Virus record (IMG/VR): IMGVR_UViG_3300031957_001682
Span: 43,633-107,632 of that record
DNA length: 64,000 nucleotides
Reading direction: 5' to 3' (one strand)
DNA from: a virus
Part shown: positions 10,871 through 45,275 of the stretch, in pieces
Layout: each line of letters starts with the position of its first letter
Numbering within the stretch: position 1 is the first letter of the stretch
Made by a program: the position numbers and the translations under genes
The notes under the pieces: generated by a model
Database searches by the model: none
Told to the model about the DNA's origin: nothing
What the model saw: the letters and a program-made list of their open reading frames with translations, nothing else

Positions 10871-11605
10871 TTAGAGATTCCTATGATGTTGAAACACAGG
10901 AATTTTAGTATCTCCATGACCCATTTGACGAAGGGCTTCCATACGATGACCACCTTCTTGCATTCCAGTGTAATTATTATTGTTAAAACTTAACTCCGGC
11001 ATACCTATTGGCATCCCTGCTTTTATTCCCTCTATGATTCGAGCGATGTTTTCACGGCTTCCTCCTTGTGAGGTAAACTGGCGACCATCCCATCTGTATT
11101 CAGCATCTCTTCCCCCTACGGGTGGTTCATTGTGTTCTTCTGCACCTTGTCCTACAATGTCAAAATAATCATTCGGTGTCATTTGAGTAATTTTATCATT
11201 TTTACCATAAGCATAAGGTTGACCACCAATCACGGGTTCGGAGAAATCCATATTGTAAGCCATTCGTACACCCGGTATATCAGTATCAACAATAGGTGCT
11301 TTGACTAAGACGCTCTTGACAATTGTAGGTTTACCGCCTACGCCTTGTTTTTTTGCACGCTTGCGTTTGGTAGCGGCTTGCTTTTGACCCTCGGACATTG
11401 AGCCGCTGGTCTTAGGTGTTTTACTTGATACTTTGACGGAAGGACGACACTTTGGATAACCCTTGCTTGATTTACTTGCTTTAGAACGCCCACATGGTGG
11501 GTGCTTGCCGTCTTTGTCTTTGCGTGACACATCAACCCACTTTTCTTTGAACCAACGGTTCAAATCCTTAACGATGAGAACATCGTAGCAGGTACATCGA
11601 GTCAT
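10871..11605 (-). CDS. Two-domain protein: basic phage domain (RWFKEKWVD..CGR..YPKCRP) fused to a ParB/Srx-like domain
   Basis: The N-terminal basic domain is common in marine viruses. The C-terminal QEGGHRMEAL resembles the ParB-N GxHR motif. The linker is IVKSVLVKA. Confidence 0.55.
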   Translation of the reverse strand: MTRCTCYDVLIVKDLNRWFKEKWVDVSRKDKDGKHPPCGRSKASKSSKGYPKCRPSVKVSSKTPKTSGSMSEGQKQAATKRKRAKKQGVGGKPTIVKSVLVKAPIVDTDIPGVRMAYNMDFSEPVIGGQPYAYGKNDKITQMTPNDYFDIVGQGAEEHNEPPVGGRDAEYRWDGRQFTSQGGSRENIARIIEGIKAGMPIGMPELSFNNNNYTGMQEGGHRMEALRQMGHGDTKIPVFQHHRNL

Positions 11606-11959: not shown

Positions 11960-12448
11960 TCAATCACTTCTTTGCGTAAAAGGATTTGGTGGGTCACTAA
12001 AATCTAAGACTCTTTCTTTAGCATGTTGCGGAGGGGGTGCTTGTGGCATCGTACTTCGAGTCATCTGTCTTTGTTGAGCGAAAGATGCTGGATTGATTGT
12101 ACCGCCGGGCGTTGAAGGTGTGGTAGGTACATCATCACCAAGTTCCGGTGATTTAGTTTCATTCTTTTCTGCATTAGGGTCATTTACATTTCCCATTTGC
12201 ATACGGGCTTGTTGATGTTCTTCTCTCCCTGCTCGCATTCGTGCAATAGGAGTTGAAAATGGTTTACCTGTTTTATCAGTTTCTTTCATCTTCAAAAATT
12301 TCCAAGCGTCACCCATTGGGATTGCTTTCTTTTTGCTGTCCGGGTCTGCTGTTTTTTCCGGCGACTTAGGCGGCTTACCACCAAGTGCAATTACAACAAC
12401 CATGCCTTTCTTTTTCTTTTTATCGTCTTCTTTCATGGTACTAACCAT
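11960..12448 (-). CDS. Hypothetical low-complexity protein carrying the PMGDAWKFLK tag
   Basis: 162 aa ORF directly downstream of the terminase. Confidence 0.55.
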   Translation of the reverse strand: MVSTMKEDDKKKKKGMVVVIALGGKPPKSPEKTADPDSKKKAIPMGDAWKFLKMKETDKTGKPFSTPIARMRAGREEHQQARMQMGNVNDPNAEKNETKSPELGDDVPTTPSTPGGTINPASFAQQRQMTRSTMPQAPPPQHAKERVLDFSDPPNPFTQRSD

Positions 12449-13923
12449 CCGTCGCCAGTTCCTTTATTTCGATGTGGCATACCACCGATGTACTCATCGA
12501 GTCCCGGTAGTATGTCATCGAGTAGTTGCACTGAACCTTTGAACTCTTTTGTTCCCCAGTTCGCTAAAGCAAGTGCCATTGCCAAGTCATCGTGAGTACC
12601 GACCGATTCAAGTCGCCCATTCTTTTGCATACCGAATCGGTTCAATTCTTCTTCTAATTTGTGAGTGAATGTACGACTTCGCTCATCACCATACGGCAAT
12701 TGAATGTGTCCTTGTTCAAAAGCCATAAGCAAAGACATGAACATACTTTCTTTGCGCTGGCGTGTTGTCATAAAAGTACGAATAGGAATATCGTTTCTCA
12801 TGTCTTGAAGTTCAGCGGCAAACATTCGCTGGAAGTTGTTTCCTTCAAGTTCAATCAAATCCGGCTGGAAGCGATTGTTAAGAGTGAGAATGTGTTTTTT
12901 CTGTGCTAATCCACCAAGTCCTTTTTCGTGAACGATACCGACAATTTGCTTTATGTTTTCACCGGGTGGTGTACGAAGCACAAGCATGGCTGTGTAGTCA
13001 GCGTTCTTATCCGAAGCAATCGCTGTGTCCCATCCAATGAAGTGCTGTCCGAACACACCAGCGGGATTACCTTCTTCGTCGTATTCGGTATCAGCCCTGT
13101 CAAGTAATACCAGTTCATTGTTGCGAGCCTCATTTAGAATTGTAGCAGGGAACATACTCGCAACATCGTGAATAGGTTCACACAAATACTCACGGCTGAA
13201 TTGGATAGCGGGCATGGACATACGCCGTTGCTCAAGTGCCTCAAGATTCCACCGTTCCGGCCAAAGCGCATTACCTTCCCCATCAATAGCAGGGTATGTT
13301 TCGACACGGAATGTTTCTTTTTGCTCAAGTTCTGCGTACAAATCGTTGTACGAAAACGGTGTACCGACCATCATCAAACGAGAAGAGTGGTGCAGAACAG
13401 GCAAAAGAACACCATAGAACCAGTCAGCGGCACGCTGTAGTTCTCCACCTGTAGTACCCCAAAGAATATCGTCGCAAACGACCACATCGGGGTGGAAACC
13501 ACGGGTAGCACCACCAACGGACTTAGCCATCAATCGGCTACCGTTAGTGAACTCAAAGTACGACTTAGCCCACGGTCGGCCACCTTCGGGCTTGAGGTGT
13601 CGAAGAATATCGGATGATTCAATGTTGTTGCGAATAAATCGCATGTGTTCAAGCGTCTGTTCAAGAGAGTGAGAAAAAATCATGATGTGTGTACCGGGTT
13701 TGAAAGCGGCAATCCAAAGAGCATAGGCCATGAACAAAGTGGATTTACCGTGGTCACGACTCGCTTTAACACAGTAGTATCGGTGTTCGTTCAATCCTGT
13801 TTCCCAAGACTCGTGGTGATGACTGTAATGAAAGCCCAAAATTTCTGTAAAGAAATACTTGAATGACTTGGCCGACATTTTGCTATCCATCTCGTGGATA
13901 AACGCATTCATGTCCTCTCCCAT
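12433..13923 (-). CDS. terL: Terminase large subunit
   Basis: Walker A SRDHGKST, Walker B VVVCDD, coupling motif GTP, and RNase H-like nuclease motifs (GWDTA, HDDLAMALALA). Start likely ATG 13923 after SD GGTGA. Confidence 0.92.
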   Translation of the reverse strand: MGEDMNAFIHEMDSKMSAKSFKYFFTEILGFHYSHHHESWETGLNEHRYYCVKASRDHGKSTLFMAYALWIAAFKPGTHIMIFSHSLEQTLEHMRFIRNNIESSDILRHLKPEGGRPWAKSYFEFTNGSRLMAKSVGGATRGFHPDVVVCDDILWGTTGGELQRAADWFYGVLLPVLHHSSRLMMVGTPFSYNDLYAELEQKETFRVETYPAIDGEGNALWPERWNLEALEQRRMSMPAIQFSREYLCEPIHDVASMFPATILNEARNNELVLLDRADTEYDEEGNPAGVFGQHFIGWDTAIASDKNADYTAMLVLRTPPGENIKQIVGIVHEKGLGGLAQKKHILTLNNRFQPDLIELEGNNFQRMFAAELQDMRNDIPIRTFMTTRQRKESMFMSLLMAFEQGHIQLPYGDERSRTFTHKLEEELNRFGMQKNGRLESVGTHDDLAMALALANWGTKEFKGSVQLLDDILPGLDEYIGGMPHRNKGTGDGWLVP

Positions 13924-13927
13924 TGTA

Positions 13928-14758
13928 TCACCGTGTCTTAATATACATGAAAGCGGCGAGTTCACCAATTTCATTTGGTGTCATTTTGTAAAGATTATCG
14001 GGTCCGAGTAAGTCGAATAACATTCCATTAAACGCTTTGGTGGGCATCAATACAGGTCTTGGTTGTCCGGTCACGGGGTCTATGGATGCTTGATACTGCG
14101 CCATCCCCGATGGATTCATTTGTTGTTGAACGGTACTTGCCATATTTGACTGATTCAATACATTGGGAGGTAGTGGTGGATTCATTTGTTGTTCAACGGT
14201 ACTTGCCATATCTTGCTGATTCAATACATTGGGAGGTAATGGCACAGCAGGTGCGGCAGTTGCGGCAGGTTGGGGTAATGCAGGTATGGGTGCGGCAGGT
14301 GCAGATGCTACAGGTGCAGGTACGGATGGTGAAGTTGATACATTTACAAGACCAGTGGATGAAGGTAATGGTACTCCACCTTCATTTGCCGCCATACCCG
14401 GAGCGGGTAATGGGATAGAATTGGGTTTAACCCCGACATGAGAATTTCCTTCAATTTGTCTTGCTGTGAATGCCCCTGTTGGGTCAAGTCCTTGATAGGT
14501 GTACCCTGCTCCAAGTGGAGCGGCTATGTTGCCACCTTGCATTGCATCAGCGGTGCTTAAAGCAGTAGCCCCTAAAGCCGCACCTTTACCAGCAAGTCCA
14601 GCAAGTCCAACCAATCGACCTGTTCTGCTAACTTTGGAACCGGGTTTTGTACCACGACCACGAACCGCATTGAACAAATCCATTGCCGAAGGACTACCTT
14701 GACCCACTGTTTGAAATTGAGTCACATCTGCTTTTACCAAAACTTTGTTGCTCACCAT
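13928..14758 (-). CDS. Hypothetical Gly/Ala/Pro-rich putative virion protein
   Basis: 276 aa ORF with a glycine-zipper-like segment, an internal repeat and an N-terminal VLVK/A site. Confidence 0.6.
   Translation of the reverse strand: MVSNKVLVKADVTQFQTVGQGSPSAMDLFNAVRGRGTKPGSKVSRTGRLVGLAGLAGKGAALGATALSTADAMQGGNIAAPLGAGYTYQGLDPTGAFTARQIEGNSHVGVKPNSIPLPAPGMAANEGGVPLPSSTGLVNVSTSPSVPAPVASAPAAPIPALPQPAATAAPAVPLPPNVLNQQDMASTVEQQMNPPLPPNVLNQSNMASTVQQQMNPSGMAQYQASIDPVTGQPRPVLMPTKAFNGMLFDLLGPDNLYKMTPNEIGELAAFMYIKTR
14111..14238. repeat. 66-bp-period direct repeat x2 (PPNVLNQxxMASTVxQQMNP)
   Basis: Seen directly: 14111-14172 and 14177-14238. Confidence 0.85.
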
Positions 14759-14759
14759 A

Positions 14760-16961
14760 TCACCCCATGTTTGTTTTTATGACTTTGATAATCTTAGCAT
14801 CAACATTGTAGGACTTAGCGATGTTGTGCCAATCTCCCATTGTTTGATTGATTGTCACGACCTCACTTGCGGTTAGCCCGACATGTTTCGCCAGTGCGTG
14901 TGGATTGTTAAGATTACTGTTAATTTTAATCCCCTCGAATCCGGCTTCTTCTTGTTGCATTCGCTCTAATGCTTTCATCACTCGGTCCATTACCGGTAGG
15001 TGTGCATCTTCGCTTCTTAGGTACTGGTCAAGTAATTGCTGTCTTGGGTCGGAAAGTGATTGTTGCGCCCTTCTTTCAATCGGTGTTAAAAATTCATCCG
15101 GTGCTGGACTTGCTCGACCTCCACCACCAGCAACCATCATTTCTCTAAATTGCTGTGGTGTTTGATTTGCAATCTGTGGTCTAACTTGCTGGAACCGTGG
15201 GTCAAGAGGCGTAGCCGGTGGGCCTTGTGGTCTTACCGCTACAGGAGGAAGAGGTGCCGCACCGGAGGGAGGTGGTGAAGAAACCGGAACCTGCGAAAGA
15301 GCGGAAGCAGGGGATTCCGGTGCGACTGTATCACCACTTGGGCGAATTGGCATGGCTGTACTTTCTGCAAAGTCTTCCATAGGGTGTAGGTATGCATCCA
15401 TGTGAGGGTCGAGTGTGGCATCAACTCCTTCTTCGGGATAATCTAAAAATTGCATATTTTTTGCTGGTTCTGTTTTTATGTCACCAATGGGCATTTTTAC
15501 TGGCAAACCCTGTGATTCTGCTTGGTGGTCGGCTAATGCTTCGATAATACCACGAAAACGCTCGACTTGACCCATAAGCCGCTCATCGTATCGTACACCA
15601 AATGCGTTTAACTGCTCACTGTCAATTGAATGATTACTCAAATTACTTCGCTCGGAGTCATCATCACTTAGACCGGACCTGTGAGCGAGTGCCATAAGAC
15701 GGGCGGCAGTGGTGTCTTTTCCTTTGCTACCACCCCTACCGGGTTTGAAATGACGACTTTGTTCATCATAGGACAAACCTTCTTCTCCTTCACCATAGAT
15801 ACCCATGAGGCTATTGAAATGCTTGTTAAAATCACCTTGACCCGGCCTACCAAACAAATACATCATTGCTGGTACATTTGCCATATCTTGAATTAAACTT
15901 CTTCGTAGTTCACTATCTTGAAGAATGACACGAAGTGGGCGTTGAATCATTTCGGGACTCGCTAAAGTGCCCACATTGATTGTAGCGGGTACATCGGGAA
16001 TTGCATCTATGTTGCCCAAAGCGTTTGTAATGGCCCTTTCAGCCATTTGATATAATCCATTTTTGTGTTCCCAACTACCTTTTTTTCCGGCTTTTTGTCC
16101 ACTTGCTTTTGTGTTAGGATAAAAGAAAATGTCCGGTAGGTGGTGAGTAGTTGATTCAGTGTGTACCGCAGTTTGTTCACTGAAATAATCATCGGGTGCC
16201 CTTGACATGTGTTGTGTGCTTATTTGATTCGGATGTTCTTGATATGAAGCATCAACTCGACCTTTAGGTGCTGTTTCACGAGCGTAAATGTAAGGTCTTT
16301 TTACAAAAGTTAAATCCGATGATACTTCAAATGGAACTCCATGTTCTCTTTCAAGAATTTGACCAAGTTCGTGATTAAAAGGAATAGAATATGATTCAAT
16401 AAAACGACCCATTGGGGTATAGTTTTTGTCACCGGGGGTGAAATTTTTGTTAGTGTAAGTGGTAATCAAAGAACCATTTTTGGTTTTTGTTGGGCGTTCG
16501 GAGTGGCCTTCTGTGCTGTCACCCGGAGGTAGCATTCCAGCCCTAATTTTTCTCCACGCCATGTTGTCAAAAGGTGGTAATGCGTGCATTCCATTATTCT
16601 TATCATCATCACCTTTGTGACTTGTATGGTTTTGATTAAACAATTGAATTGCTTTGTTAATCAAATCGACAGGATGTGCTTTGATACCATGTTTTTCTAA
16701 AAACCACCCTAAGCGTGTAGCCGCCGCATCAATACCGTGTTGATAACTTCCCATTGGTGTGTTGTAGTGTAGTTCACCGTGGTCACCCGGAGCAAACTCA
16801 CCTTCAAGAATTTCTCCTTGAGCATGTGCAAAGGCGGGTACATCTTCTTCTGTAGGTGGTCGAAACGCTGTTGCCGGTGGGTTGCGAATCATTGCCGCAC
16901 CCTGTGGGGTAAAATGCTTCATTCCCCATGCTTTAATCAATGGAAAACGAACAGGTATCAT
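14760..16961 (-). CDS. Large hypothetical protein (putative internal virion protein)
   Basis: 733 aa ORF in the late operon with an N-terminal LIK/A site. Confidence 0.65.
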   Translation of the reverse strand: MIPVRFPLIKAWGMKHFTPQGAAMIRNPPATAFRPPTEEDVPAFAHAQGEILEGEFAPGDHGELHYNTPMGSYQHGIDAAATRLGWFLEKHGIKAHPVDLINKAIQLFNQNHTSHKGDDDKNNGMHALPPFDNMAWRKIRAGMLPPGDSTEGHSERPTKTKNGSLITTYTNKNFTPGDKNYTPMGRFIESYSIPFNHELGQILEREHGVPFEVSSDLTFVKRPYIYARETAPKGRVDASYQEHPNQISTQHMSRAPDDYFSEQTAVHTESTTHHLPDIFFYPNTKASGQKAGKKGSWEHKNGLYQMAERAITNALGNIDAIPDVPATINVGTLASPEMIQRPLRVILQDSELRRSLIQDMANVPAMMYLFGRPGQGDFNKHFNSLMGIYGEGEEGLSYDEQSRHFKPGRGGSKGKDTTAARLMALAHRSGLSDDDSERSNLSNHSIDSEQLNAFGVRYDERLMGQVERFRGIIEALADHQAESQGLPVKMPIGDIKTEPAKNMQFLDYPEEGVDATLDPHMDAYLHPMEDFAESTAMPIRPSGDTVAPESPASALSQVPVSSPPPSGAAPLPPVAVRPQGPPATPLDPRFQQVRPQIANQTPQQFREMMVAGGGGRASPAPDEFLTPIERRAQQSLSDPRQQLLDQYLRSEDAHLPVMDRVMKALERMQQEEAGFEGIKINSNLNNPHALAKHVGLTASEVVTINQTMGDWHNIAKSYNVDAKIIKVIKTNMG

Positions 16962-18625
16962 CCCATGTGCCCCCGCTTTGAAGTAAGATAACCAGCGGGG
17001 TCAAGTCCTAAACGACTTGAATTGGTTTCAAGATTTTGAGTAGGACCGTCATTCTTCTCATCTTCATCTTCATTCTGTTGCACACCGGCTGGATGCGCTG
17101 GCACTGCCCCTTCTTCAAAAGCCGACGCTGTACCCGCTTTTTTCATATTGGCTTTTTTTCTTTGAAGTTCAATTAACTGCCTCATCAATTGAAGCATTTC
17201 AACACGATTAGCGTGACGATTACCTTTGAGTAAATCACTTTCAGTACGCTCTTCACTCATCATCATTGTTGACGATGGTGCTGGCATACTCGGAACGCTA
17301 CTCATCGGTGGAGCCATCTGTGGCATTTGTGGCATGGCTGGCACACGAGGCATACGAGGCACACGAGGCATACGAGGGCGGCGCATTCTTCGGAGAGAAG
17401 GCTGTCGCATTTGTCCCGATTGACCCGGTAATAGACCAGTTAAACGCCCAGCACCAGTTGGTCCAGCAGTAAACGACCTTGCGCTGTGACGAGCGTGTGG
17501 AGAATATGTGTTGCGAACACCACCAAGAATTTTTTGTGATTCTTGCTGGCCCATGTATTGACGGTATTTTTGTGGGTCTTTACTCATGGGTTGCTTAGTC
17601 GCAATACCACGGTGACTCATTTCAACAGACAAGTGAGGCTTCATCAAACCTGTTTTCTTTCCACCCTTGATACCACGCATTCTTGCTTTAAATCGCTTCA
17701 TGGTTGCACCAACACCACCGCTTTGCCCACCCGGTGGTTTCTTGAATTGTCCAGTTGAAGGGCGGAACTCTCTTCGTTTTTCACGGCGACGACGAGCCTC
17801 TATTGTACCCATTGTGTCACGCTTAAGTAGTGTACTCCAAGCATCAGCCATTGGTTCACTCATGGTAAAACTTGTTTCATCATTAAACGGTACATCAGTA
17901 AAATCACGATATTTACCTTCTATATCATCAAACGGAGGTTGTGCATCATCAACTTGAAAATTATGTAAATCATATAATTTCTCAAAAAAATCTTCACGAG
18001 ATGTAGCACTTGCTAAGTGGTTTATGTCGGGTTGTTGGAAATCATCTGCAAGACCCTCATACAAATGGGGGTTATCTATCTGTTCTTGAATCCAATTATA
18101 CCATTCGGGGTGAACATCATTACGATTTGGCATTTTGTAATCGTGTTTGTATTGATTTTCACCGGGATGAACCGTAGGTTCTTCTTTCAACAATGTACTC
18201 CAAGCACCATCCATCGGCTCGCCTGTTCTTACGGCTGAATTACCCGTACCCATCGCTGAACCTGTACCTGTCTTTGCACCTGTGGCTAAATCGAGTAAAT
18301 GTCCACGACTACCAGCCGGTCCACCTTGAAGCCCTATCTCACGCTCATCATCACGCTTGTTACCGTCATCAAGACCGGGTTCTGTTTCCAATCCCGCCCC
18401 TTGACCTAACCCTTGAGATGGTTTAATTTTGATGTGTTTGATTTCTTTGGCCTTTTTCTTAGCCTCTTCTTCTTTGAGTTTTTTTGCTTCTGCCCGCTTT
18501 TCATTATCTTCGGGTGAAGTAGGGTTGTATTTACCCTCATCTTCATTAGCAGAAGAATACATGTGAGATGATTCACTACGGGGTGCATACATGCGTGTGT
18601 CCGAACCTCGACCCATAACCATCAT
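16958..18625 (-). CDS. Modular, largely disordered protein with two EPMxxAWSTLLK tags
   Basis: 555 aa ORF. Tags at about 18185-18220 and 17822-17857. A 9-bp repeat (PRM/PRV) lies at 17340-17377. Confidence 0.65.
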   Translation of the reverse strand: MMVMGRGSDTRMYAPRSESSHMYSSANEDEGKYNPTSPEDNEKRAEAKKLKEEEAKKKAKEIKHIKIKPSQGLGQGAGLETEPGLDDGNKRDDEREIGLQGGPAGSRGHLLDLATGAKTGTGSAMGTGNSAVRTGEPMDGAWSTLLKEEPTVHPGENQYKHDYKMPNRNDVHPEWYNWIQEQIDNPHLYEGLADDFQQPDINHLASATSREDFFEKLYDLHNFQVDDAQPPFDDIEGKYRDFTDVPFNDETSFTMSEPMADAWSTLLKRDTMGTIEARRRREKRREFRPSTGQFKKPPGGQSGGVGATMKRFKARMRGIKGGKKTGLMKPHLSVEMSHRGIATKQPMSKDPQKYRQYMGQQESQKILGGVRNTYSPHARHSARSFTAGPTGAGRLTGLLPGQSGQMRQPSLRRMRRPRMPRVPRMPRVPAMPQMPQMAPPMSSVPSMPAPSSTMMMSEERTESDLLKGNRHANRVEMLQLMRQLIELQRKKANMKKAGTASAFEEGAVPAHPAGVQQNEDEDEKNDGPTQNLETNSSRLGLDPAGYLTSKRGHMG

Positions 18626-19362: not shown

Positions 19363-19653
19363 ATGTGGAGGGTAAAAAGAGTAGCAGGTGTGCCGCTTAA
19401 CAAAGAAAGTATTCGTAGCCTTACACAAGCCGCTAAGGATGTTGTAAAAGGTGAATACGCACCTACAAATTTAGTGAAAGAAAGACTTCGTATATGTGGC
19501 ACTTGTCCTCACGGTGGTACAAAATGCTCACTTTGTGGTTGTTTTTTGAAGTCTAAAACAGCATTGCTTAACTCGCAATGCCCAATACACAAATGGCCGT
19601 CAGCGAGTGATACGGGAATAAACACCAGTGAGCATAAGGAAACTACCAAATAA
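19363..19653 (+). CDS. Small Cys-rich phage protein (RLxICxxC...CxLCGCF..K...CPxxKW type)
   Basis: Characteristic Cys pattern common in viral genomes. Confidence 0.6.
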   Translation: MWRVKRVAGVPLNKESIRSLTQAAKDVVKGEYAPTNLVKERLRICGTCPHGGTKCSLCGCFLKSKTALLNSQCPIHKWPSASDTGINTSEHKETTK

Positions 19654-19851
19654 TCCTACAAGGTAATAAGAAACGCTGGCTGAATCCATTGTTCCTCCTT
19701 TAAAAATTAAAATCATAAGCATAGTCACAATAATAGAAATTAGTTGCACCATTACCATATCAATTATAATGCTTCGATTTGGATTTAACATATCGAGTGT
19801 AGTAGCGGCAAAGGAAGTTGGAATGTACCCTGTATAATCATATTCTTTCAT
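19600..19851 (-). CDS. Small two-TM membrane protein
   Basis: 83 aa with two hydrophobic stretches; SD GAGGTGA. Confidence 0.6.
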   Translation of the reverse strand: MKEYDYTGYIPTSFAATTLDMLNPNRSIIIDMVMVQLISIIVTMLMILIFKGGTMDSASVSYYLVGLFGSFLMLTGVYSRITR

Positions 19852-19855
19852 AATA

Positions 19856-20479
19856 TCACCTCATACCAATAAAACTGCGACCAAGACTACCAAGCCCTCC
19901 GCCGACTTTTTCCATTACACCTTCATTAGCAAGAGCCGCTGAAAGCGCACCACCCATCATAGACTGTTGAGCGAAAGTTGACAGTTGTTGTTGTTCCATT
20001 TCTGTTTGACTTACTTTCTGTGTAGCGGCGGCTTGAAGATTGGTAAATTGTCCCGTCACATTTTCTGCGCTCATAGTTTGCAAATTTGATGGAAGTGAAG
20101 TCACATCCATTTTCATTGTACCACTTTCTTCGTCAATAGTAAAAGTAGCATTACGAAGAACTTCAAGAACACTGAAACTCACAAGGTTGCTAAACATTTC
20201 AACAAGAGTTCCCATTTGTGGGCTGGCAACATATCGCTCAATAGGAGTAATACCTCGTAAAAGCATAATTTGAATTTCAAGTTCACTTGGAGGTGCTACC
20301 GGTTGTTGAGTAAATTGATTTTGTTGACCACCAAACATTCCTTGCATAATAGGGGCTTGACTCACACCCATCATTTGCTGATTAGCCCACGGATTTTGTT
20401 GTGTTGCGGGTGCGCCTAAATTCAAAGCACCGTTATTCATTGGTGTCGCACTTCCGCCTAATCCCAACATCTCACTCAC
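19856..20479 (-). CDS. Hypothetical Gln/Gly-rich protein of the GTPase operon
   Basis: 207 aa ORF with a C-terminal amphipathic/glycine-rich tail. Confidence 0.6.
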   Translation of the reverse strand: MSEMLGLGGSATPMNNGALNLGAPATQQNPWANQQMMGVSQAPIMQGMFGGQQNQFTQQPVAPPSELEIQIMLLRGITPIERYVASPQMGTLVEMFSNLVSFSVLEVLRNATFTIDEESGTMKMDVTSLPSNLQTMSAENVTGQFTNLQAAATQKVSQTEMEQQQLSTFAQQSMMGGALSAALANEGVMEKVGGGLGSLGRSFIGMR

Positions 20480-21425
20480 CTACCCCAATACTTTCTTGCT
20501 CAAGAGGGTTTTGATTGACTACTTGGGCTACTTGTTGTTGTACAAGTGCTTGAAAAGCCGGTGTTGCTTGTTGTTCTAACGCTAATTCATGTTGAAATAT
20601 ACGCAAATCAAAAGAAACCGTAGTAATGTCATTTTCTCCTGTAATTGGGTTGGTGTAATGATTCACATTGATGCCTTTTGTTTTGCGAGAATCTTTTTCC
20701 AGTTCAGCAAAAAAAGGCTCATATTTTTTCAACATAGTAGGAGTAGGGTCTTTTTTGGTGACAGCCGAAACAGGAACAGTCACAATTGATACACCCTGCT
20801 TGACTCTATCTCGTAGTCGTTTTGGATTTGATTCGTTAATGCGGTCTTCTTCTGCTTCCCACTTAACGAGTAAATGGTATAGATGCATGTGTTCGGGGCA
20901 ATAAGTTCCTCTCATTTTACGACCACTGGTGACTCGCTCTAAAGCCACAAACGCTTCCGGCTCACCTGTCACTGGATTTTGCCAATACATTTCCCAAAGA
21001 CTTCGCCCTGTATCTTCATCGCAAATCTTAGCGTACAAATTATCATATTGAATTAAAGTAGCACAATCACACCCATCGACTACACACACACTTGTTTGTT
21101 TATTGTAGTGGTATTTTCTTCCAAATACCCATCGTAAAGGATTTAAAAGCCCTCGCTTTGAGGGTGTAAGAAGTTTGTACGCTTGCTTAATATCTTTTTT
21201 TCTTGCTTTTTGTGGGTCGGGATGACGACTTGGGTAAAAATTAACTTTAGGAACTTGCAAATTATTTTGACTTGCAACTTTTTGCATTGCGCCTTGTGCT
21301 GTTGCTTGTTCCATTAAAGCGGCATACGAAAGAGTATCATTACCCTGTTGACTTAACGCCATTAAATGTGCTTGGTTTACACTACCGAGATTTGCTTGGT
21401 TTTGTTGACTAAACTGTGGTATCAT
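20472..21425 (-). CDS. Hypothetical Zn-binding protein of the GTPase operon
   Basis: 317 aa ORF with CVVDGCDC and YCPEH motifs. Confidence 0.6.
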   Translation of the reverse strand: MIPQFSQQNQANLGSVNQAHLMALSQQGNDTLSYAALMEQATAQGAMQKVASQNNLQVPKVNFYPSRHPDPQKARKKDIKQAYKLLTPSKRGLLNPLRWVFGRKYHYNKQTSVCVVDGCDCATLIQYDNLYAKICDEDTGRSLWEMYWQNPVTGEPEAFVALERVTSGRKMRGTYCPEHMHLYHLLVKWEAEEDRINESNPKRLRDRVKQGVSIVTVPVSAVTKKDPTPTMLKKYEPFFAELEKDSRKTKGINVNHYTNPITGENDITTVSFDLRIFQHELALEQQATPAFQALVQQQVAQVVNQNPLEQESIGVGE

Positions 21426-21604
21426 TGTTTTTCACCTTTGTACATTTTAAGATAAAAACCATTTTGTAAGTCACCGCAAAGTTCCCATTTGATTTTATCA
21501 CCTGCTGATAATTCTAATAATTCTGCCATTACCGCTGGTATGACGGTTCTAACACATTTACTTTTTTTATTCACGGCAATTACAGTTGTAGTTTTGTTTA
21601 ACAT
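21422..21604 (-). CDS. AbrB/SpoVT-like swapped-hairpin DNA-binding protein
   Basis: RTVIPAVMAELLELSAGDKIKW matches the AbrB pattern. Confidence 0.65.
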   Translation of the reverse strand: MLNKTTTVIAVNKKSKCVRTVIPAVMAELLELSAGDKIKWELCGDLQNGFYLKMYKGEKQ

Positions 21605-21613
21605 ATTTTTCCC

Positions 21614-22330
21614 TCAAGTTGTTAATAAGTCAATCATGGTTTCTTCCACATTCCATCCTATTCGTGTAGCCATAAAAGACCTGCGAGTAGGTATGTTTGC
21701 TTTTTGAAGTCGAATTAAATCATCTCGAAATGCATCAAAGATTTTGTGTTCACCAATGCGGTTTTGTTGCCAAAGCATAGCGGCATTTTCATCAAAAAAT
21801 CGGTCGGCTTTGTTAGCCACAAGCATAACTAAACGAGGTGCGTACTTTTTACCCTTCCAACGACTTTTGAAGTTTCTATACCGATATGAGCGATTGATTA
21901 AACTATCAACAAGATACTTGAAGCCAGCAATTTGTTGCAATGCTTCTTCACCACCTTTTATTGCCCTGTCATCAAAAACAAATAAAACGGCTTCAACTTG
22001 TCTTCCTACCATATCGTCAATCCAAAGATTCCAAAACCGTTCTTGTCCTCCTACATCGGATGAATACACCACTCGCTTTTGTCCTTTCCAAGAAATGCGT
22101 TTACGAGTTGCTTTAGGCATCATGTATCGACCAAGTAATTTCATGTGTGAAGTTCGCTCTTCATCACTTATTTCTTCCATTTCACCCGGAGTTGTCATGT
22201 ATCGGTCAAGTGTAGTTTTACCTACCATTGCCGCTCCATAGACACCTACTTTTCTTGGTCGCCAAGAGTTGTATAACATTTGACCATAAAGAGCCGCACC
22301 TACAAGTGCTGAACCTGCTGGGTCAACCAT
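21614..22330 (-). CDS. Ras-superfamily small GTPase, Arf/Sar1-like
   Basis: G1 GAAMVGKTT, G3 DVGGQERFWNLW, VLFVFD, G4 NKAD; N-terminal hydrophobic/amphipathic helix. Confidence 0.85.
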   Translation of the reverse strand: MVDPAGSALVGAALYGQMLYNSWRPRKVGVYGAAMVGKTTLDRYMTTPGEMEEISDEERTSHMKLLGRYMMPKATRKRISWKGQKRVVYSSDVGGQERFWNLWIDDMVGRQVEAVLFVFDDRAIKGGEEALQQIAGFKYLVDSLINRSYRYRNFKSRWKGKKYAPRLVMLVANKADRFFDENAAMLWQQNRIGEHKIFDAFRDDLIRLQKANIPTRRSFMATRIGWNVEETMIDLLTT

Positions 22331-22583
22331 TTAACTTCCCCCATATCCAATCTGCAAGATTTTGTACTTTTTTCCAAACCCATTCAACGGTGTTTTCCCA
22401 AAAAGATTCACCTGTGGTTAGTTCCCATAGACTGATTATCAATGCAGTAATAAAACAAAAAAAGACTGTTCTTATCCAACCGATTCCTTTTTCGTAATAT
22501 GTGTCAAGAGTGTTTTGAGTGTGCATTGCACGAAGTGTGGCCTCGGTTGAATCATCAGTAGGGGTTTTGAAGATACGACCCAT
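22323..22583 (-). CDS. Small membrane protein
   Basis: 86 aa with one TM helix and a Trp-rich amphipathic C-terminal helix; overlaps the GTPase start. Confidence 0.6.
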   Translation of the reverse strand: MGRIFKTPTDDSTEATLRAMHTQNTLDTYYEKGIGWIRTVFFCFITALIISLWELTTGESFWENTVEWVWKKVQNLADWIWGKLNG

Positions 22584-22592
22584 TTAACCAAC

Positions 22593-23123
22593 TCACTTTT
22601 TCTTTTCTTCTTCTTCTTTTATACCAAGATTAATTGGTTGTTTTACTTCTGCTTCATGATTTGGAATACCCGGATTAAATTTTTCAGCGTCATGCTGTGA
22701 AATTAACGACTGTGAACCACCCGGTACACCCCAACTTGGAGGCATTTTACCGGGGTTCATTTCCATCCAGCGCAATTCTTGTTCAAGTTGTGCTTCTTGC
22801 ATACGCATTTCCATATCATTGCGTCGATTATCAAAACTAAGTTGCATTTGGCGGTATCGGTCTTGCCTACTCTTCTCAACTTGTGTTGTTCGTACTCTTT
22901 CTTGCATGTTTTGTTCAAAAAACATCTTAAAAAAGTAATATGCAATACCTTGAACAAAAAATGCCGCCATAGCATAAGTAAAACCATTTAACATTGGTGT
23001 ATCGCTAATTAACCATAATTCTGCATCAAAAACACCAATTGCGATACCTACTAATGCCGATTGAGCCAAAATTAGCCCCATAAGTCGTATTTCTGCGTCC
23101 GAGTCTTGCCTGTTGCCTTGCAT
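22593..23123 (-). CDS. Two-TM membrane protein with coiled-coil cytoplasmic domain
   Basis: 176 aa with two N-terminal hydrophobic helices followed by a Q/E/R-rich coiled coil. Confidence 0.65.
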   Translation of the reverse strand: MQGNRQDSDAEIRLMGLILAQSALVGIAIGVFDAELWLISDTPMLNGFTYAMAAFFVQGIAYYFFKMFFEQNMQERVRTTQVEKSRQDRYRQMQLSFDNRRNDMEMRMQEAQLEQELRWMEMNPGKMPPSWGVPGGSQSLISQHDAEKFNPGIPNHEAEVKQPINLGIKEEEEKKK

Positions 23124-23171: not shown

Positions 23172-23303
23172 AATTGTCATCATTGTCATAATACCATTCA
23201 AAATAATGAGTAGTATTACTATATATTTAGTGTAGGGGGGTGAAAATGACAAACATTAGTCAATTTGTTGACTACGATGATGACAATTATGACAATTGAC
23301 AAT
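23172..23303. repeat. Non-coding TGACAA/TTGTCA iteron-like element A around an AT-rich core
   Basis: TTGTCA at 23174 and 23183; TGACAA at 23247, 23281, 23290 and 23297; AT-rich centre. Confidence 0.6.
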
Positions 23304-26011
23304 CAAAGTAAGGTTCCTTTGTCCTTGAAATGCCTCGCTCGGTTGGTATGAGGGTCTTCGGGAACAATAGTGTGCTGGCTGGTGTGGCTCATGTCCGGTC
23401 CACCCTGTCCCATAATGTGTCGTTGTCGGCGTTCACGGTTAAGTTCCTCTCGATACTTCACACGCTCCGGGCTGGACTCGTACTTCTTGTCGTACTCCAA
23501 CTTATGCCGCTTGGCTTCGGGGCTTACACGCTCTTTAAGTAATCGCATAGCAATCTCCATTGGTTCGCCTTGCTGTATCATTTGCGGTTGTTGAGATTGT
23601 AAATGATTCCAATACTCATAGGTATCGGGTCTATGTTGTAGCATTTCATTAACCCCCGTTTGATTTGATTGGTCCGATTGATGTGCACCATATTCATGAG
23701 CATACACTCTTGCTTGATTAGCCAACGCAACTCTTTGTTTTTCAGCATCCATTTCGGCTTGGTTTGTAGGTTTGGTCTTTAATCTTTGTAAAAAAGAGGC
23801 TCCTTGCATATCTGTAGGATATTCGGGTTTTACTTGAGATTGTAATGGCCCATGTTGTTGTTCTGCCCATTCATTTATTTCGGGGTTAATTAGACTGTGC
23901 GTATATTCATGCCCAAGAGTGTTTGCTAATCCTTGTATAGATTCATCACTGTCGTTTATACCACGCACATCAGCCCCAATAAAATCCCCATTTGATTGAA
24001 GTCGTGGTTGAGAGCCACCGGTTGTGTAATCACCTTTATTTTGAATTTCTTGCACAGTATTTTTATCCACTCCACTCATTCGATTCATAGTTTGATTGCG
24101 AGGTATTGATAGCAATGCTTCATTGCTAATATCGGCAGGTGTATAAAATCCCTGCATACCTTCTTCGTCATCACCAATATAGAACTCTTTGAGCAAACGC
24201 ATAGCAATATCCATTGGTTCGCCTTGCTGTATCATTTGCGGCTGTTGTACTTGCGGCTGTTGTACTTGCGGCTGTTGTACTTGCGGCTGTTGTACTTGCG
24301 GCTGTTGTAATGGTAATTGTTGTTGATTTGGGTCTGTTGGTTGTACAACTGGGTTAGGTTGCATGTATTGAGCCATTCGTTGATTATAGTCATCCGTAAT
24401 TTGTTCACGATTTTTCCCCCATCTCATTCTGTATGGCTCTTTAGGTCTAACTTCACCTCTTTGATTTGTTTGTTGAAGATTGGGTGTATCAATTTCTGTA
24501 TTTTCTCTTTGTGCTATTTGCCCTCCTATTGATAAAGCGGGTTGTGACATGGCTGTATTTATCTCATTTTGGTTATTTGTTCTCGCATGTGCTGTGTTTT
24601 CTAATACTGAATTTGTAATGGGTGTATTGGTTAAAAATTGTCTTGGTATATTTCCACCGTAATGTGTTGCATCACTAAAATCAACTGTTTGTCCTTGCGC
24701 TGTTTTAAAATTATGACTTGGGCCTATGAAATTTGGATGGTTTTGGTCGAAAGCGGCTTGTCTTATTGCTAATAATTTAGGTTTGGAGTGTGTACCTCCA
24801 CCATGATGACCCACACTTCTATCAATTGCATAACTAAGTGCTTCCGAAGGATTTGTACTCATGGTGCGGTAATTATCACTATGTGTTTTTAAACCATCTC
24901 CACCCATTATTTTTCTTGCATCATCACCCGTAGTTCCGTGATAAGCAACTACAGGGCCGTAAGGTGAAGGAAAGTCTTCATGATGCTCGCCTAAATTAGT
25001 TTGATATTTAAGCAACCGCATAGCGAGGTCCATTGGTTCGCTTCTATAGAATTGTGTTGGGTTTTTTAATGCACCCGGAATTGCAGTTAATTGGTCATCG
25101 AGTAATTGCATTTGTTCGGGCGAAGTATGTGTTTCATCTAATTCTGCTACACGCCCCGATGGTCCCATAGTTCGTTCCCATTGTTGAAAAGTACCATGTA
25201 ATGGGTCCATACCCCCACCTATGTTTCCTGTTAAATCGTTGAGGTTTTCTGTTATAGAAGAAATTACTTTTCCATCCGGTCCTATTTTTGTTGGTACAAT
25301 ATCTTGGAATGATTTTATACCATAGGCTCTTGCTGTTTGTGGGTCAATTAAAGCACCCGGAATTTCAGCATCCATTATCATTTGGGCAAGTTCACGAGCA
25401 CGATGACGCTGTGCTCCTTCCAGTCCTATTCTTGATGGAGGGGCATCTTTACTTCTTGGTAAAAACATACTTGCGGCTCTTTGAAGGTCATAAAGCATAA
25501 ATGGGTTTTTGTTAAGTCGGCGTACACTGTCTTCTTCTAAATCACCATAAATGATTCCTTCGGGGTCTTGATTTTTACCGTATCTTTCCGGTGTACTTTC
25601 AAAACCATACAAATTTAAAGGCCATGCTCTTTTACTTTCGGGTACATCAACAAATTCGCTACCTTGTCTTGGTGTTAAACCCATTGCATGACTCGGAAAA
25701 ACAAACCTTCCTCCAAGTGGCTCATCAGTCATTATGGTTTCAAGTGGTAGTTCTTCCCCTCGACCCATTTCTAAATTATGGTCCCTAAAACTTGTATTTT
25801 CACGATTGGCAAGTTTTCTTGCTAAATGTAAATTTTTACTTGGGTGGTATTTACTGGTATTTTGTGCAGAAGTTAATCTAAGTGACCTATTTGGAGAGTA
25901 TCTTTGGTGAAAACCAGCCATAAGTTCATCGAATTTTCGCTCATTATACTCACGAATAATTTCATCCCAACGCTCATTTTGGTTTTTAAGAAGGAGGAAA
26001 GCCTGTTCCAT
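23303..26011 (-). CDS. Tag-delimited polyprotein: unknown module, ADP-ribosyltransferase-like, zincin metallopeptidase-like, HNH-like
   Basis: Four EPM(D/E)xA(M/F)xLLK tags. Module motifs: YHGT...STNPSEALSYA; HEYTH plus HEYGAH; DMSH...NRARH. Start is ATG 26011 or upstream, up to 26038. Confidence 0.75.
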   Translation of the reverse strand: MEQAFLLLKNQNERWDEIIREYNERKFDELMAGFHQRYSPNRSLRLTSAQNTSKYHPSKNLHLARKLANRENTSFRDHNLEMGRGEELPLETIMTDEPLGGRFVFPSHAMGLTPRQGSEFVDVPESKRAWPLNLYGFESTPERYGKNQDPEGIIYGDLEEDSVRRLNKNPFMLYDLQRAASMFLPRSKDAPPSRIGLEGAQRHRARELAQMIMDAEIPGALIDPQTARAYGIKSFQDIVPTKIGPDGKVISSITENLNDLTGNIGGGMDPLHGTFQQWERTMGPSGRVAELDETHTSPEQMQLLDDQLTAIPGALKNPTQFYRSEPMDLAMRLLKYQTNLGEHHEDFPSPYGPVVAYHGTTGDDARKIMGGDGLKTHSDNYRTMSTNPSEALSYAIDRSVGHHGGGTHSKPKLLAIRQAAFDQNHPNFIGPSHNFKTAQGQTVDFSDATHYGGNIPRQFLTNTPITNSVLENTAHARTNNQNEINTAMSQPALSIGGQIAQRENTEIDTPNLQQTNQRGEVRPKEPYRMRWGKNREQITDDYNQRMAQYMQPNPVVQPTDPNQQQLPLQQPQVQQPQVQQPQVQQPQVQQPQMIQQGEPMDIAMRLLKEFYIGDDEEGMQGFYTPADISNEALLSIPRNQTMNRMSGVDKNTVQEIQNKGDYTTGGSQPRLQSNGDFIGADVRGINDSDESIQGLANTLGHEYTHSLINPEINEWAEQQHGPLQSQVKPEYPTDMQGASFLQRLKTKPTNQAEMDAEKQRVALANQARVYAHEYGAHQSDQSNQTGVNEMLQHRPDTYEYWNHLQSQQPQMIQQGEPMEIAMRLLKERVSPEAKRHKLEYDKKYESSPERVKYREELNRERRQRHIMGQGGPDMSHTSQHTIVPEDPHTNRARHFKDKGTLL
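24236..24309. repeat. 15-bp tandem repeat x5 (TTGCGGCTGTTGTAC), encoding a QQPQV linker
   Basis: Seen directly in the sequence. Confidence 0.9.
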
Positions 26012-26091
26012 TGGCTCTAACTCTCTACGCATACGCACCAGTTGGTGGTAAAAAGCGATACCATTTAGAATGCTCGCCCGCTACGAGAGTC

Positions 26092-27609
26092 ATGGGCCGA
26101 CATGTTGCTGTGCGTAAAGCACCTACTCCGGCTGATGCTGGGGGTGCAGTTGCAGGTCGAGCCGCCGGAGGCGGTATAGGTAGTGCCATAGGTGGTGTTT
26201 TAGGTTCTATTATCCCCGGTGCTGGCACTGCGGCTGGTGCTTCTGCTGGTGGTGCAGTTGGTGGTGCAGTTGGTGGTGCAGTTGGAAAAGTTGGTGCTAA
26301 GAAAATTGCTGTTGGAGCCGCTGAAATGGCACAAAATCAAGCCAATGCTCAAGCCGCTCAATCACAACAAACCATGCAGAATAACATTCAAAGCGCAAAG
26401 GACACGGCTCAACAAGCCAAAGACCAAGCCGGTATCGAAAAGGCTTGGAAGTTTCCAGCAAGAATGATGCACCCGGAATTTAAATCATATCGGGATAGCA
26501 TTATTGAGCGGGCTAAAAAAGCACCTCGACAAGATGAAGATTTTCGTCAAAACCAGCATTGGAATGAACGCATGGGTCATAAAGAAGGCAGACCCCAAGA
26601 GGCTCGCTACATTCCAAACCAACACTTTGAACATGAAGATGAAGTACACAACATTACTCCATTTCAAGTTGCTTATGCTACATTGCAACACATGAAAGAA
26701 AATAGGTTAATTGATGAAGACAATCACGATGCTGTAGCATTGCGGGAATTACTTCATACTGACCAACCACACCCCGACCCTAATCAAATGGAAAGTGGTA
26801 TGGCTCACATATTTTCTCCTGTAATGGATATTAGGACTATGAGGGGTAAATCAGCACACGCTCAACCATTTATTGACCCAAAGGGTGCAAAAACACAGCA
26901 TATTTACGCACAAGATGTAGTAAAACCCGATAATCTTTCATATTCATCACAAGAAAAAATTGCTGTGCGACCAAAATCAATTGTAAATGAATATATGCCC
27001 GGTAAAAGAGCAAAACCAAGTGAAGAAGAACTTATTGACAGTTTTATTGACACTCCGGCAAGTAAATTACAAAGAAATTTTGGTATTGAAGACAATAGAC
27101 TTGCAGGGCAAGAATATATTGCTCAAAGAAAATATGAAAAAGAACAAGCCAAACAACAAGCGGCTCAACAGGCTCAACAAGAAGCACAGGCTAAAGAAGA
27201 ACAATTTCAACAACAACCAATAACAGTAAATGATATGGGCGGTGTGTACTTTGTCACAGACCCCGCTTACGGTTATAATGGTGAAATGATGGATTATCAA
27301 CAATTAGTTCAAGGTGGGTATGACAAATATCTTAACAATGATAACAAAAGTGAACCAATGGACTTAGCGTGGCAAATGTTGTTTAAAGCGGGTGTTGAAG
27401 TTCACCACGATGAACCACTGCCGCAAGAGTTTACTCAAGACATTACTACACTTGACCGTCAACACAAAATGGTTCCAACAGAAAACGGCACTATGATTGA
27501 CAATATCAGCCCACACATGCTCCGTACCATTGAACTAATGGCGCAAAATCACAAAGATGATGATACTTTCACACCTAAACCATTTAAAATGCCTACAACT
27601 TTTCATTGA
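26092..27609 (+). CDS. Modular protein: N-terminal glycine zipper, unknown module, EPMDLAWQMLFK tag, short C-terminal module
   Basis: GxxxG repeats at the N-terminus; tag at 27352-27387; transcribed divergently from the polyprotein. Confidence 0.65.
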   Translation: MGRHVAVRKAPTPADAGGAVAGRAAGGGIGSAIGGVLGSIIPGAGTAAGASAGGAVGGAVGGAVGKVGAKKIAVGAAEMAQNQANAQAAQSQQTMQNNIQSAKDTAQQAKDQAGIEKAWKFPARMMHPEFKSYRDSIIERAKKAPRQDEDFRQNQHWNERMGHKEGRPQEARYIPNQHFEHEDEVHNITPFQVAYATLQHMKENRLIDEDNHDAVALRELLHTDQPHPDPNQMESGMAHIFSPVMDIRTMRGKSAHAQPFIDPKGAKTQHIYAQDVVKPDNLSYSSQEKIAVRPKSIVNEYMPGKRAKPSEEELIDSFIDTPASKLQRNFGIEDNRLAGQEYIAQRKYEKEQAKQQAAQQAQQEAQAKEEQFQQQPITVNDMGGVYFVTDPAYGYNGEMMDYQQLVQGGYDKYLNNDNKSEPMDLAWQMLFKAGVEVHHDEPLPQEFTQDITTLDRQHKMVPTENGTMIDNISPHMLRTIELMAQNHKDDDTFTPKPFKMPTTFH

Positions 27610-27675: not shown

Positions 27676-28521
27676 TCATTGCAATAACGGTACTTTATGT
27701 TCCTTTTCGTTTAATGCAATTTGTTGTGCGATAGTTGATGCAACTTTAAGTGTGTCAATGCACACACCGGTTTCAAAACCCCATACATTAAGATGCAATA
27801 CCAGTGTTTCGGTTGACAAGTTTGCTCCACTATTGTCAACAAACGGACAACCGCCGAGTCCACCGATGCTTGAGTCAAACTCACGAACACCAGCCATAAG
27901 ACCCGCACGAATTAGTTGCAATGCTTTTTCTTCGTCACCTTTGTGATGTAAATGCAATGCGGGAGTCATACCTTCGAGTATAGCCATCTCGGACCACAAA
28001 TGTACCTCTTCTCTTGTTCCTACCCCCACTGTATCAGCAAACACTACAGTATTGCCAAACATTTTTGCATCTTTAATGCACGATTGCATGGTTAATGGGG
28101 AAACTTGACCACTGAATGGACTACCAAACGCCATGCTGATGTACACACGCACATTTTCCTTTGGTGTTTTATCCAAGAATGTTTTGTACATCAACACAAG
28201 TTCACTTCGGGTTTTTCGCATGTTTTTCATGTTGAAGGTTTCACACGGGCTAATGACTATGTTGATTTTTTTAGCACCAACAGCAATGGCTCGGTCAAAA
28301 CCACGCTTGTTCATGACAAGCGCACCGCCACGCTGATACACTTTTTCAGCATCAGCCATTTGCGGCACAAGTTTTGGGTGTGCAAAACTAACTTCTTCAA
28401 TTTCTGTCAAGCCAGCGTCGTATAATGCATCAATAAGTTCGGTTTTTTTAGAAGTGGGTATTGGAAATTTAAGTGATTGCAAACCGTCACGAGGGCCAAC
28501 CTCGTACACGGTCACTTTCAT
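27676..28521 (-). CDS. hmgL: Hydroxymethylglutaryl-CoA lyase (auxiliary metabolic gene)
   Basis: EVGPRDGLQ, SFxHPKLVPQMAD, ADTVG, metal-binding HxH (LHLH) and GLGGCPF (catalytic Cys): the DRE-TIM HMG-CoA lyase signature. Confidence 0.9.
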   Translation of the reverse strand: MKVTVYEVGPRDGLQSLKFPIPTSKKTELIDALYDAGLTEIEEVSFAHPKLVPQMADAEKVYQRGGALVMNKRGFDRAIAVGAKKINIVISPCETFNMKNMRKTRSELVLMYKTFLDKTPKENVRVYISMAFGSPFSGQVSPLTMQSCIKDAKMFGNTVVFADTVGVGTREEVHLWSEMAILEGMTPALHLHHKGDEEKALQLIRAGLMAGVREFDSSIGGLGGCPFVDNSGANLSTETLVLHLNVWGFETGVCIDTLKVASTIAQQIALNEKEHKVPLLQ

Positions 28522-41187: not shown

Positions 41188-41657
41188 TGATAGTCACTGA
41201 TGAGCAGATGAAACAGGATTGGTATGACAACTTGACGAATGCGTATGACCTACAGGCGATTGTTCTTGCTCATTATGATGCTGGAAGTTTTGGCTTTGCA
41301 GACTACGACGAGGCACAGGATAACTTAGCCAGCGAGAACTTCCTCGTGTACACAGACGAAGAGGCTGACGAAGCAGTGCGTGATTACATAGAGGAATCAG
41401 TATGGGCTTTCACTCCATCGTTCTTACGAGCACATACAGACCACAGGGCAAGAGTCACTGTTGAAGCAATTGCGAAACTACAGGAGATGTGTGAGAGTGC
41501 AAACGAACCACTCAAGGCGATGATAAAGGACTTCGATGCCTTTGTTGAAGACGCAGTATCATGCGACGGGCGAGGACATTTCCTTGCTCCATACGACCAT
41601 GAAGAGAACGAGATTACTTTCAATGGCATAACATACTACATTTACCGGAGGAATTGA
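41184..41657 (+). CDS. Acidic hypothetical phage protein
   Basis: 157 aa, D/E-rich, with DGRGHFLxxYD segment. Confidence 0.65.
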   Translation: MMIVTDEQMKQDWYDNLTNAYDLQAIVLAHYDAGSFGFADYDEAQDNLASENFLVYTDEEADEAVRDYIEESVWAFTPSFLRAHTDHRARVTVEAIAKLQEMCESANEPLKAMIKDFDAFVEDAVSCDGRGHFLAPYDHEENEITFNGITYYIYRRN

Positions 41658-41863
41658 AATGAGCGTACTGAAAATTAGGATTGAAACGGAAGAATACATT
41701 TACGAAGAATACTTGGAGGCATAAGAATGAAACTAAGTGAAGCAGAAAACATGGATGATGAAGATTTTAGAGAATGGTGGATAAATGAAGTGAGTGGTAT
41801 TCCCAAAGGCGAATTGATTCAACTGTTTATGACTGACGAATGGCAACTCATAGAGGTGGACGC

Positions 41864-43315: not shown

Positions 43316-43324
43316 AAAAACAAC

Positions 43325-43359
43325 ACTGAAAGCAATTTGATATAAAGAGTAAAAGAAAC
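43325..43359 (+). promoter_or_regulatory. Early promoter copy 5
   Basis: ACTGAAAGCAATTTGATATAAAGAGTAAAAGAAAC. Confidence 0.8.
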
Positions 43360-43367
43360 GGTAATTG

Positions 43368-45268: not shown

Positions 45269-45275
45269 AAACAAC

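Follow-up and report, generated by a model that had tools for sequence, protein, structure and literature searches.

The window analyzed here comprises 64,000 nucleotides (nt), the last 64 kb of the 107,632-bp genome of an uncultured tailed virus (IMG/VR record IMGVR_UViG_3300031957_001682, positions 43,633 to 107,632), and encodes on its minus strand a polyprotein of 911 amino acids (aa) consisting of four modules and four copies of one short conserved tag. It is precisely at the tags that relatives of this polyprotein acquire, drop or swap modules, and the same tag heads at least six other late genes of the genome. The open reading frame (ORF) is uninterrupted and begins with GTG; alternative ATG starts are present at residues 3 and 10. 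A preliminary description, made from the sequence alone, had divided this ORF into four tag-bounded parts. The division stands, as four copies of EPM(D/E)xA(M/F)xLLK were found, and all motifs quoted there lie at the positions given. The parts of the polyprotein are as follows.

23303-26038 (-): polyprotein ORF, arranged tag, module 1, tag, module 2, tag, module 3, tag, module 4
25985-26017 (-): tag 1, EPMEQAFLLLK, at the N-terminus, aa 8-18
25040-25984 (-): module 1 (family F1), about 315 aa
25007-25039 (-): tag 2, EPMDLAMRLLK, aa 334-344
24221-25006 (-): module 2, probably a PARP-like domain of the ADP-ribosyltransferase (ART) fold, then a Gln/Asn/Pro-rich linker, about 260 aa including the linker
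24932-24943 (-): YHGT of module 2
24827-24859 (-): STNPSEALSYA of module 2
24226-24330 (-): tandem array of five 15-nt repeats, translated as (QQPQV)n, within the linker that precedes tag 3
24188-24220 (-): tag 3, EPMDIAMRLLK, aa 607-617
24185-24247 (-): copy 1 of a 63-nt direct repeat (linker QQPQMIQQG and tag 3)
23567-24187 (-): module 3, zincin-like, about 205 aa
23897-23911 (-): HEYTH of module 3
23681-23698 (-): predicted second helix of module 3, with AHEYGAHQSD
23534-23566 (-): tag 4, EPMEIAMRLLK, aa 825-835
23531-23593 (-): copy 2 of the 63-nt direct repeat (linker and tag 4)
23306-23533 (-): module 4 (family F0, phrog_6437), about 76 aa, basic helices followed by D-M-S-H ... N-R-A-R-H
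23384-23395 (-): DMSH of module 4
23330-23344 (-): NRARH of module 4

When 1.84 billion representative proteins were searched in full with HMMER, 441 relatives of the polyprotein were recovered, 333 of them at E≤1e-10. Among the best 150 of the 441, the number of tags per protein ranged from 0 to 7. The modules between tags were 57–480 aa long (median 162 aa), and when these 150 representatives were split at their tags, the fragments clustered into more than 100 module families. The usual architecture consists of F1 (module 1), a variable set of modules, and F0 (module 4), and architectures differ even among close relatives. In comparisons of close relatives, some modules are 76%–97% identical and others wholly different, and the similarity ends at a tag in every pair. 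Such breakpoints were located at tags in the comparisons with relatives P0001, P0002, P0003, P0005, and P0006; the matched stretches of the polyprotein were residues 10-344 and 601-911 for P0001, 10-344 and 819-911 for P0002, and 280-618 and 821-911 for P0003. In the nearest IMG/VR genomes (L006-L008), the neighboring genes are 80%–92% identical, and only F1 (36% identity) and F0 (81%–88%) are shared between the polyproteins. Across 80 IMG/VR loci, the length of the polyprotein ORF varied from 91 to 1,226 aa. The swapping at tags predicted in the preliminary description is thus seen directly as breaks in similarity. The same description had named invariant or dependent modules as outcomes contrary to it; since modules are exchanged at the tags, and modules 2 and 4 (F0) also occur free-standing elsewhere, they are neither.

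Known domains are rare in this family. Pfam analysis of 89 related polyproteins revealed only DUF5872 (10 members) and single matches to DUF3293, SAM lyase, and HD_4, and MuF is not listed among these families. For the whole 911-aa protein, no Pfam family was found at E≤0.1, so an N-terminal MuF (SPP1 gp7-like) domain is missing, and searches of the PDB with sequences and profiles of the modules found nothing. Other modules of the polyprotein family include glycine-zipper, zinc-finger DNA-binding, DUF5872, SAM-lyase-like, and HD domains, a set that fits ejected or anti-defence proteins.

The tag is not a chance recurrence. A strict tag pattern had four matches in the ORF versus 0.00015 expected per residue shuffle, and eight matches in the six-frame translation of the genome versus none in 30 triplet shuffles. 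The logo built from 268 distinct contexts reads phi-x-[A/K/T]-[S/G]-E-P-M-[D/E]-I-A-[M/F/W]-[R/Q]-L-L-K; conservation is sharp from position -5 to +9 and collapses right after the Lys, and the residue that follows it is most often Glu or Ala. At the DNA level, the most frequent versions of the tag were present in 40 IMG/VR viral contigs, whereas 185,579 genomes of prokaryotic species contained none of them, and three complete relatives carried 8, 4, and 3 canonical tags versus 0 for a reversed control pattern. The tag is far from random and confined to viruses. Within one genome, the tags use the same codons at synonymous sites, and the two copies of the 63-nt repeat, between which module 3 sits, are 92% identical. 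Such near-identical DNA could serve as a recombination substrate. Tag 1 matches tags 2–4 at only 21–23 of 33 nt, and the amino-acid motif is kept. The other tagged ORFs of the window are listed below.

26011-27609 (+): 532-aa protein, transcribed divergently from the polyprotein, with a glycine-zipper region, an internal tag at 27352-27387, and a 75-aa last module
16958-18625 (-): 555-aa ORF belonging to the conserved gene block of the polyprotein, with two internal tags at 18185-18220 and 17822-17857
28715-29659 (-): 314-aa ORF with the N-terminal tag MVAPFNQAWMLLK
29769-30797 (-): 342-aa ORF with the N-terminal tag MEGPFNSAWALLK

Upstream of the window, an N-terminal tag also heads the genes at genome positions 9916, 10548, 11195, and 39378. 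All tagged ORFs are located in the late, structural part of the genome between 10 and 74 kb, and the replication module contains none.

The two ends of the viral genome overlap by 76 bp, which indicates that it is complete. The gene set comprises the large terminase, portal, S78 prohead protease, HK97-type capsid protein, PolB, SNF2 helicase, and a Cpn60/TCP1 chaperonin (thermosome). The main structural genes are the following.

Genome 42609-44123 (-): S78 prohead protease fused to a long C-terminal, scaffold-like tail (Pfam Peptidase_S78, E 1.1e-9; PHROG head maturation protease, 2.8e-15)
Genome 41477-42586 (-): HK97-type capsid protein
Window 12433-13974: large terminase
Window 7763-9550 (-): portal

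With its counterparts in the haloarchaeal siphoviruses HVTV-1, HCTV-1, and HCTV-5, the capsid protein shares 35%–37% identity, and no bacterial match was found. Halovirus-like capsid proteins, a thermosome, SNF2, and a size of about 100 kb are described for group A magroviruses of Marine Group II archaea (Philosof et al., PMC5434244). Since this combination, together with PolB, is also found here, the assignment to an archaeal virus made in the preliminary description is well supported, and the genome can be regarded as that of a complete magrovirus-like archaeal tailed virus.

We consider it possible, with a probability of about 0.45, that the tag is an address and processing signal for virion cargo, similar to the capsid targeting sequence (CTS) of phage T4; both loading and cleavage are what we infer. 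The ORF would then encode a series of cargo modules independent of one another. The portable, helical tag in front of each module would direct it to the assembling head, as the CTS does in T4. The prohead protease would cut at or beside the tag and release the modules, and the PARP-like ART lacking the catalytic Glu, the zincin-like module, and the small basic end module would enter the host together with the DNA and act early on host defence or host machinery. A broader reading, held with slightly lower confidence, is that the EPMDIA(M/F/W)(R/Q)LLK helix is a general portable code for addressing and cleaving cargo in marine archaeal tailed viruses. Whatever protein follows the helix would then enter the capsid and be set free by the head protease, and cassettes recombined at the tag would renew the injected anti-defence arsenal.

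Several observations argue for a role of the tag in cargo loading and release. It is located at the extreme N-termini of single-module proteins and also joins modules in polyproteins. Tagged genes are exclusively late, and both the S78 protease and the HK97-type capsid protein are encoded. The hypervariability of the cargo is as expected of host-aimed proteins. In addition, phi-phi-K sites like the end of the tag are present at both borders of the protease domain (ALIK/G, residues 46-48, and RILK/E, residues 199-201), and the capsid protein has ELLK/AD at residues 34-39, which is kept in three relatives and aligned with MSK/AD of HVTV-1. Judging by sequence, these are candidate maturation sites resembling the tag end.

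Other observations weigh against this role. The support from the phi-phi-K sites is weak because about two such triplets are expected per protein by chance. Among the 89 related polyproteins, no tagged module fused to a portal, MuF, or capsid domain was found. If the cut fell just after the conserved Glu, the next residue, Pro, would take the P1' position, where it would be unusual. No tag was found in the structural region of HVTV-1, the nearest cultured relative. Finally, the genome encodes two other possible partners of the tag. The polyprotein gene heads a block kept in 70–73 of 81 loci. This block holds a pair of small membrane proteins, an Arf-like GTPase, several further small proteins, the 555-aa ORF with two tags, and a protein of 733 aa, after which comes the terminase. 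The Cpn60/TCP1 chaperonin is present in all four complete tagged genomes. The part of the block directly downstream of the polyprotein is the following.

Window 19600-23123 (-): cassette of two small membrane proteins, a Roc/Arf-like GTPase (Pfam Roc, E 0.0036), an AbrB-like protein, and others

These two partners are the basis of an alternative that we regard as unlikely, although it is the strongest competitor. The tag could be a docking peptide for a machine outside the virion, either the cassette of membrane proteins and GTPase, which would sort the modules to or through the host membrane, or the viral thermosome, which would assist folding or assembly; the modules would then act in the producing cell. 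A link of propeptides to chaperonins has a precedent, since T4 propeptides are reported to recruit GroEL, according to work cited in PMC10052503. However, the tagged genes are spread over the head, tail, and packaging regions and are not confined to the vicinity of the GTPase cassette, hypervariable cassette content characterizes effectors aimed at the host more than it does the clients of a housekeeping chaperone, and synteny by itself is no proof of interaction.

Improbable, in our view, is that the protein stays uncut as one polyvalent multidomain protein in which the tags are inter-domain helices, providing homologous DNA and a tolerated joint for shuffling. The 63-nt repeat bracketing module 3 and the shared synonymous codons of the tags agree with such a function, and polyvalent proteins can be packaged unprocessed, as exemplified by the virion RNA polymerase of phage N4 (PMC5512222). 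Nevertheless, a joint is needless at the extreme N-terminus of a single-module protein, where the tag is often found, and the tag amino acids are kept even where the DNA has diverged, as in tag 1. It is very improbable that the zincin-like module 3, rather than the prohead protease, cuts the polyprotein: module 3 has a conserved HExxH and a Glu-bearing helix, and self-processing has been proposed for metallopeptidase domains of polyvalent proteins (PMC5512222), but it is present in only about 9 of 150 representative polyproteins and, therefore, is not the general tag-processing enzyme.

The closest known analogue of a cargo-loading tag is the T4 CTS, which is carried by the internal proteins IPI-III and Alt and removed by the prohead protease gp21 (Mullaney and Black 1996, as cited in PMC10052503; reviews PMC3012670 and PMC9026906). 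Both are short conserved N-terminal peptides on unrelated proteins, which in T4 are fast-evolving accessory proteins, and in both cases a prohead protease of the assemblin type (S77-S78) is encoded. The T4 set includes an ADP-ribosyltransferase (Alt), just as module 2 here is probably ART-like. Unlike the CTS, the tag also joins modules inside long ORFs, up to seven times, has no sequence similarity to the CTS, and belongs to an archaeal virus. Polyvalent proteins of phages and conjugative elements carry unrelated effector domains, including ART and zincin-like metallopeptidase domains; a role in early infection has been proposed for them, and some are processed (Iyer, Burroughs, Anand, de Souza, and Aravind 2017, PMC5512222). 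As in the present family, several unrelated effector-type domains are combined in one polypeptide, with contents varying between relatives, but no common tag at each domain boundary has been reported for them, whereas the modules described here are small, mostly lack a Pfam match, and have a tag that also heads single-module genes.

Two further systems are comparable in part. SPN3US and PhiKZ, which are giant phages, have ejection (E) proteins and propeptides that the prohead protease cuts at A-X-E (PMC10052503, PMC5694885); many head-internal proteins are thus matured by one protease at a short recurring motif, and the propeptides are thought to direct the proteins to the prohead. That motif consists of only three residues in long non-conserved propeptides, whereas here a whole helix of 11–15 residues is conserved and portable. 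The Dar anti-restriction proteins of phage P1 are defence-directed cargo packaged in the head (PMC12810830), some of them processed before or during packaging; processing of DdrB is discussed in PMC5512222. They have no common address tag and are loaded through a hierarchy of specific proteins. No paper in the literature collection searched contained the tag strings, and the magrovirus papers checked mention neither polyproteins nor a common peptide. What is new is a single portable helix of archaeal viruses, found both at the head of genes and as the joint between cassettes.

The fold of module 2 is probably that of ARTs, most similar to the PARP-like H-Y-E clade, but the canonical catalytic Glu is absent. 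Direct searches gave little: Pfam analysis of 16 homologues matched only PTS_2-RNA (Tpt1/KptA), with E 0.09–0.12 in 3 of 16, over the YHGT region, and when the genome was searched with Pfam PF01885, no candidate got past the first filter. In about 20 relatives, the module is free-standing, about 250 aa long, with the tag at residues 3–12. IMG/VR contains a large superfamily of small tagged proteins with the common leader tag-RQTELGEFHPDFPSSYGPV-x-x-YHGT that are divergent thereafter. A member of a sister family (L089:8456-8833) matched Pfam PARP with E 1.1e-4 (22.2 bits, below the cut-off of 26.7), ART-PolyVal with E 0.048, and Tpt1 with E 0.3. The core of module 2, with the tag and leader removed, aligned with the L089 family in hhalign over the whole domain (81 columns, probability 97.3%, E 2.7e-11). 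The assignment follows from this alignment, the PARP match of the L089 family, and the retention of the PARP-type His (YHGT) and Tyr (NY), which are invariant in the 16 homologues. In a protein atlas, the only Pfam families given for the clusters listed, out of 30 matches, were PARP (16% of the members of one cluster) and Tox-ART-HYD1, with a score of 0.87. Pfam analysis of ten suspected distant ART-like relatives found nothing. The position of the catalytic Glu (FTEGIP in L089) is occupied by Gly/Asn (GGNIP) throughout the module 2 family, so the His-Tyr-Glu triad is incomplete, and the AlphaFold2 model based on the 16-sequence alignment was unusable, with a mean predicted local distance difference test score (pLDDT) of 37.5. 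Thus, the preliminary assignment to ART-like proteins is partly supported, with a probable fold of this type but an incomplete catalytic triad; module 2 could be inactive or could act as a mono-ART by another route. The tagged gene at genome positions 9916-10545, located in the tail region, is a paralogue of module 2 with 23% identity.

Module 3 was described as a zincin peptidase. In 11 aligned homologues with identities as low as 41%, the His, Glu, and His of its HExxH motif (HEYTH) show little or no variation, and AHE(Y/F)GAHQSD on the second predicted helix is kept in 8 of 11 but not in the two most distant. In the AlphaFold model of modules 3 and 4 (mean pLDDT 53), both motifs are located on a helical hairpin with pLDDT 70–87; short low-confidence strands precede the hairpin, and the N-terminal half is of low confidence. 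The minimal zincin core of polyvalent proteins has HExxH on the first helix and Glu on the second (Iyer et al., PMC5512222), and the modeled layout of module 3 matches it. Module 3 had no Pfam match at E≤1 and no PDB sequence match at E≤10. For the model of modules 3 and 4, Foldseek against the PDB returned nothing below E 1.8, and VIA-align found only generic helical hairpins (Z≤6.2). The family-wide HExxH and the Glu-bearing second helix thus agree with the preliminary assignment, but a profile or fold match was not obtained. A search of IMG/VR for further relatives of module 3 yielded only one contig, which was already in the set.

Conservation is highest in module 4, where about 20 residues are invariant across 21 sequences; this module is usually, but not always, the last one. 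Its only match is phrog_6437 (unknown function). The AlphaFold2 model (pLDDT 55–77) contains two basic helices, short strands, and a last helix; the invariant D, S, and H are at the strands, and N, R, A, R, and H are on the last helix, which would be compatible with a beta-beta-alpha finger. The proposed relation to HNH nucleases was not confirmed: no Pfam match was found for 29 members at E≤1 and no PDB match with a 21-sequence profile, hhalign against the HVTV-1 HNH proteins gp109 and gp111 gave probabilities below 1%, and neither Foldseek nor VIA-align reported a structural neighbor for the module 4 part of the model. The similarity is limited to the residue pattern. Free-standing homologues of about 87 aa (41%–56% identity), annotated as hypothetical, are present in Synechococcus and Prochlorococcus cyanophages, including gp107 of Synechococcus phage S-CRES3 (L002); the F0 family, therefore, spans bacterial and archaeal viruses.

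Module 1, the common first module, has the conserved linear motifs LPL, NLYGF, and PEGIIYGDL, and no usable neighbor was found in the protein atlas. It was considered as an embedded protease and rejected, as no conserved set of Ser, Cys, His, and Asp was present in 27 aligned homologues.

Some other features of the genome were observed. A gene for an HMG-CoA-lyase-like protein (window 27676-28521, minus strand; Pfam HMGL-like, E 3.4e-19) lies between tagged genes, and in 37 IMG/VR loci a homologue with about 70% identity is found close to the polyprotein. The tail region, upstream of the window, contains one ORF of 6,359 aa (genome 11527-30606, minus strand), after which come three small tagged genes. 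The C-terminus of the portal is of low complexity over about 110 residues rich in Pro, Gly, and Met, in which GGAPP and MPPP units recur. Two genes are located between the terminase and the portal (window 9547-10845 and 10871-11605, both on the minus strand). One is a 432-aa ORF whose C-terminal part matches a PHROG labelled HNH endonuclease, yet looks LAGLIDADG-like; the other is a DUF5872 gene, and DUF5872 is also the tagged module found in 10 of the 89 related polyproteins. In the early region (window 44054-48046, plus strand), at least six small ORFs open with a second common N-terminal motif, M-I-D-T-D-K-Y-E-G-H-T, with variants such as MINTDKYEGCT and MIDIDKYENHD. These ORFs form a leader-like family of their own within the genome's replication half.

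In the surface ocean, magroviruses, whose hosts are uncultured, rank among the archaeal viruses of greatest abundance. A common tag on hypervariable accessory proteins would give a sequence rule by which probable virion cargo and effectors could be listed from metagenomes, and it would offer a loading and cleavage signal that can be tested directly, for which a cultured host is not required. Recombination at a conserved joint would provide a concrete mechanism for the fast renewal of effectors, comparable to the internal-protein loci of T-even phages and to polyvalent proteins but organized differently.

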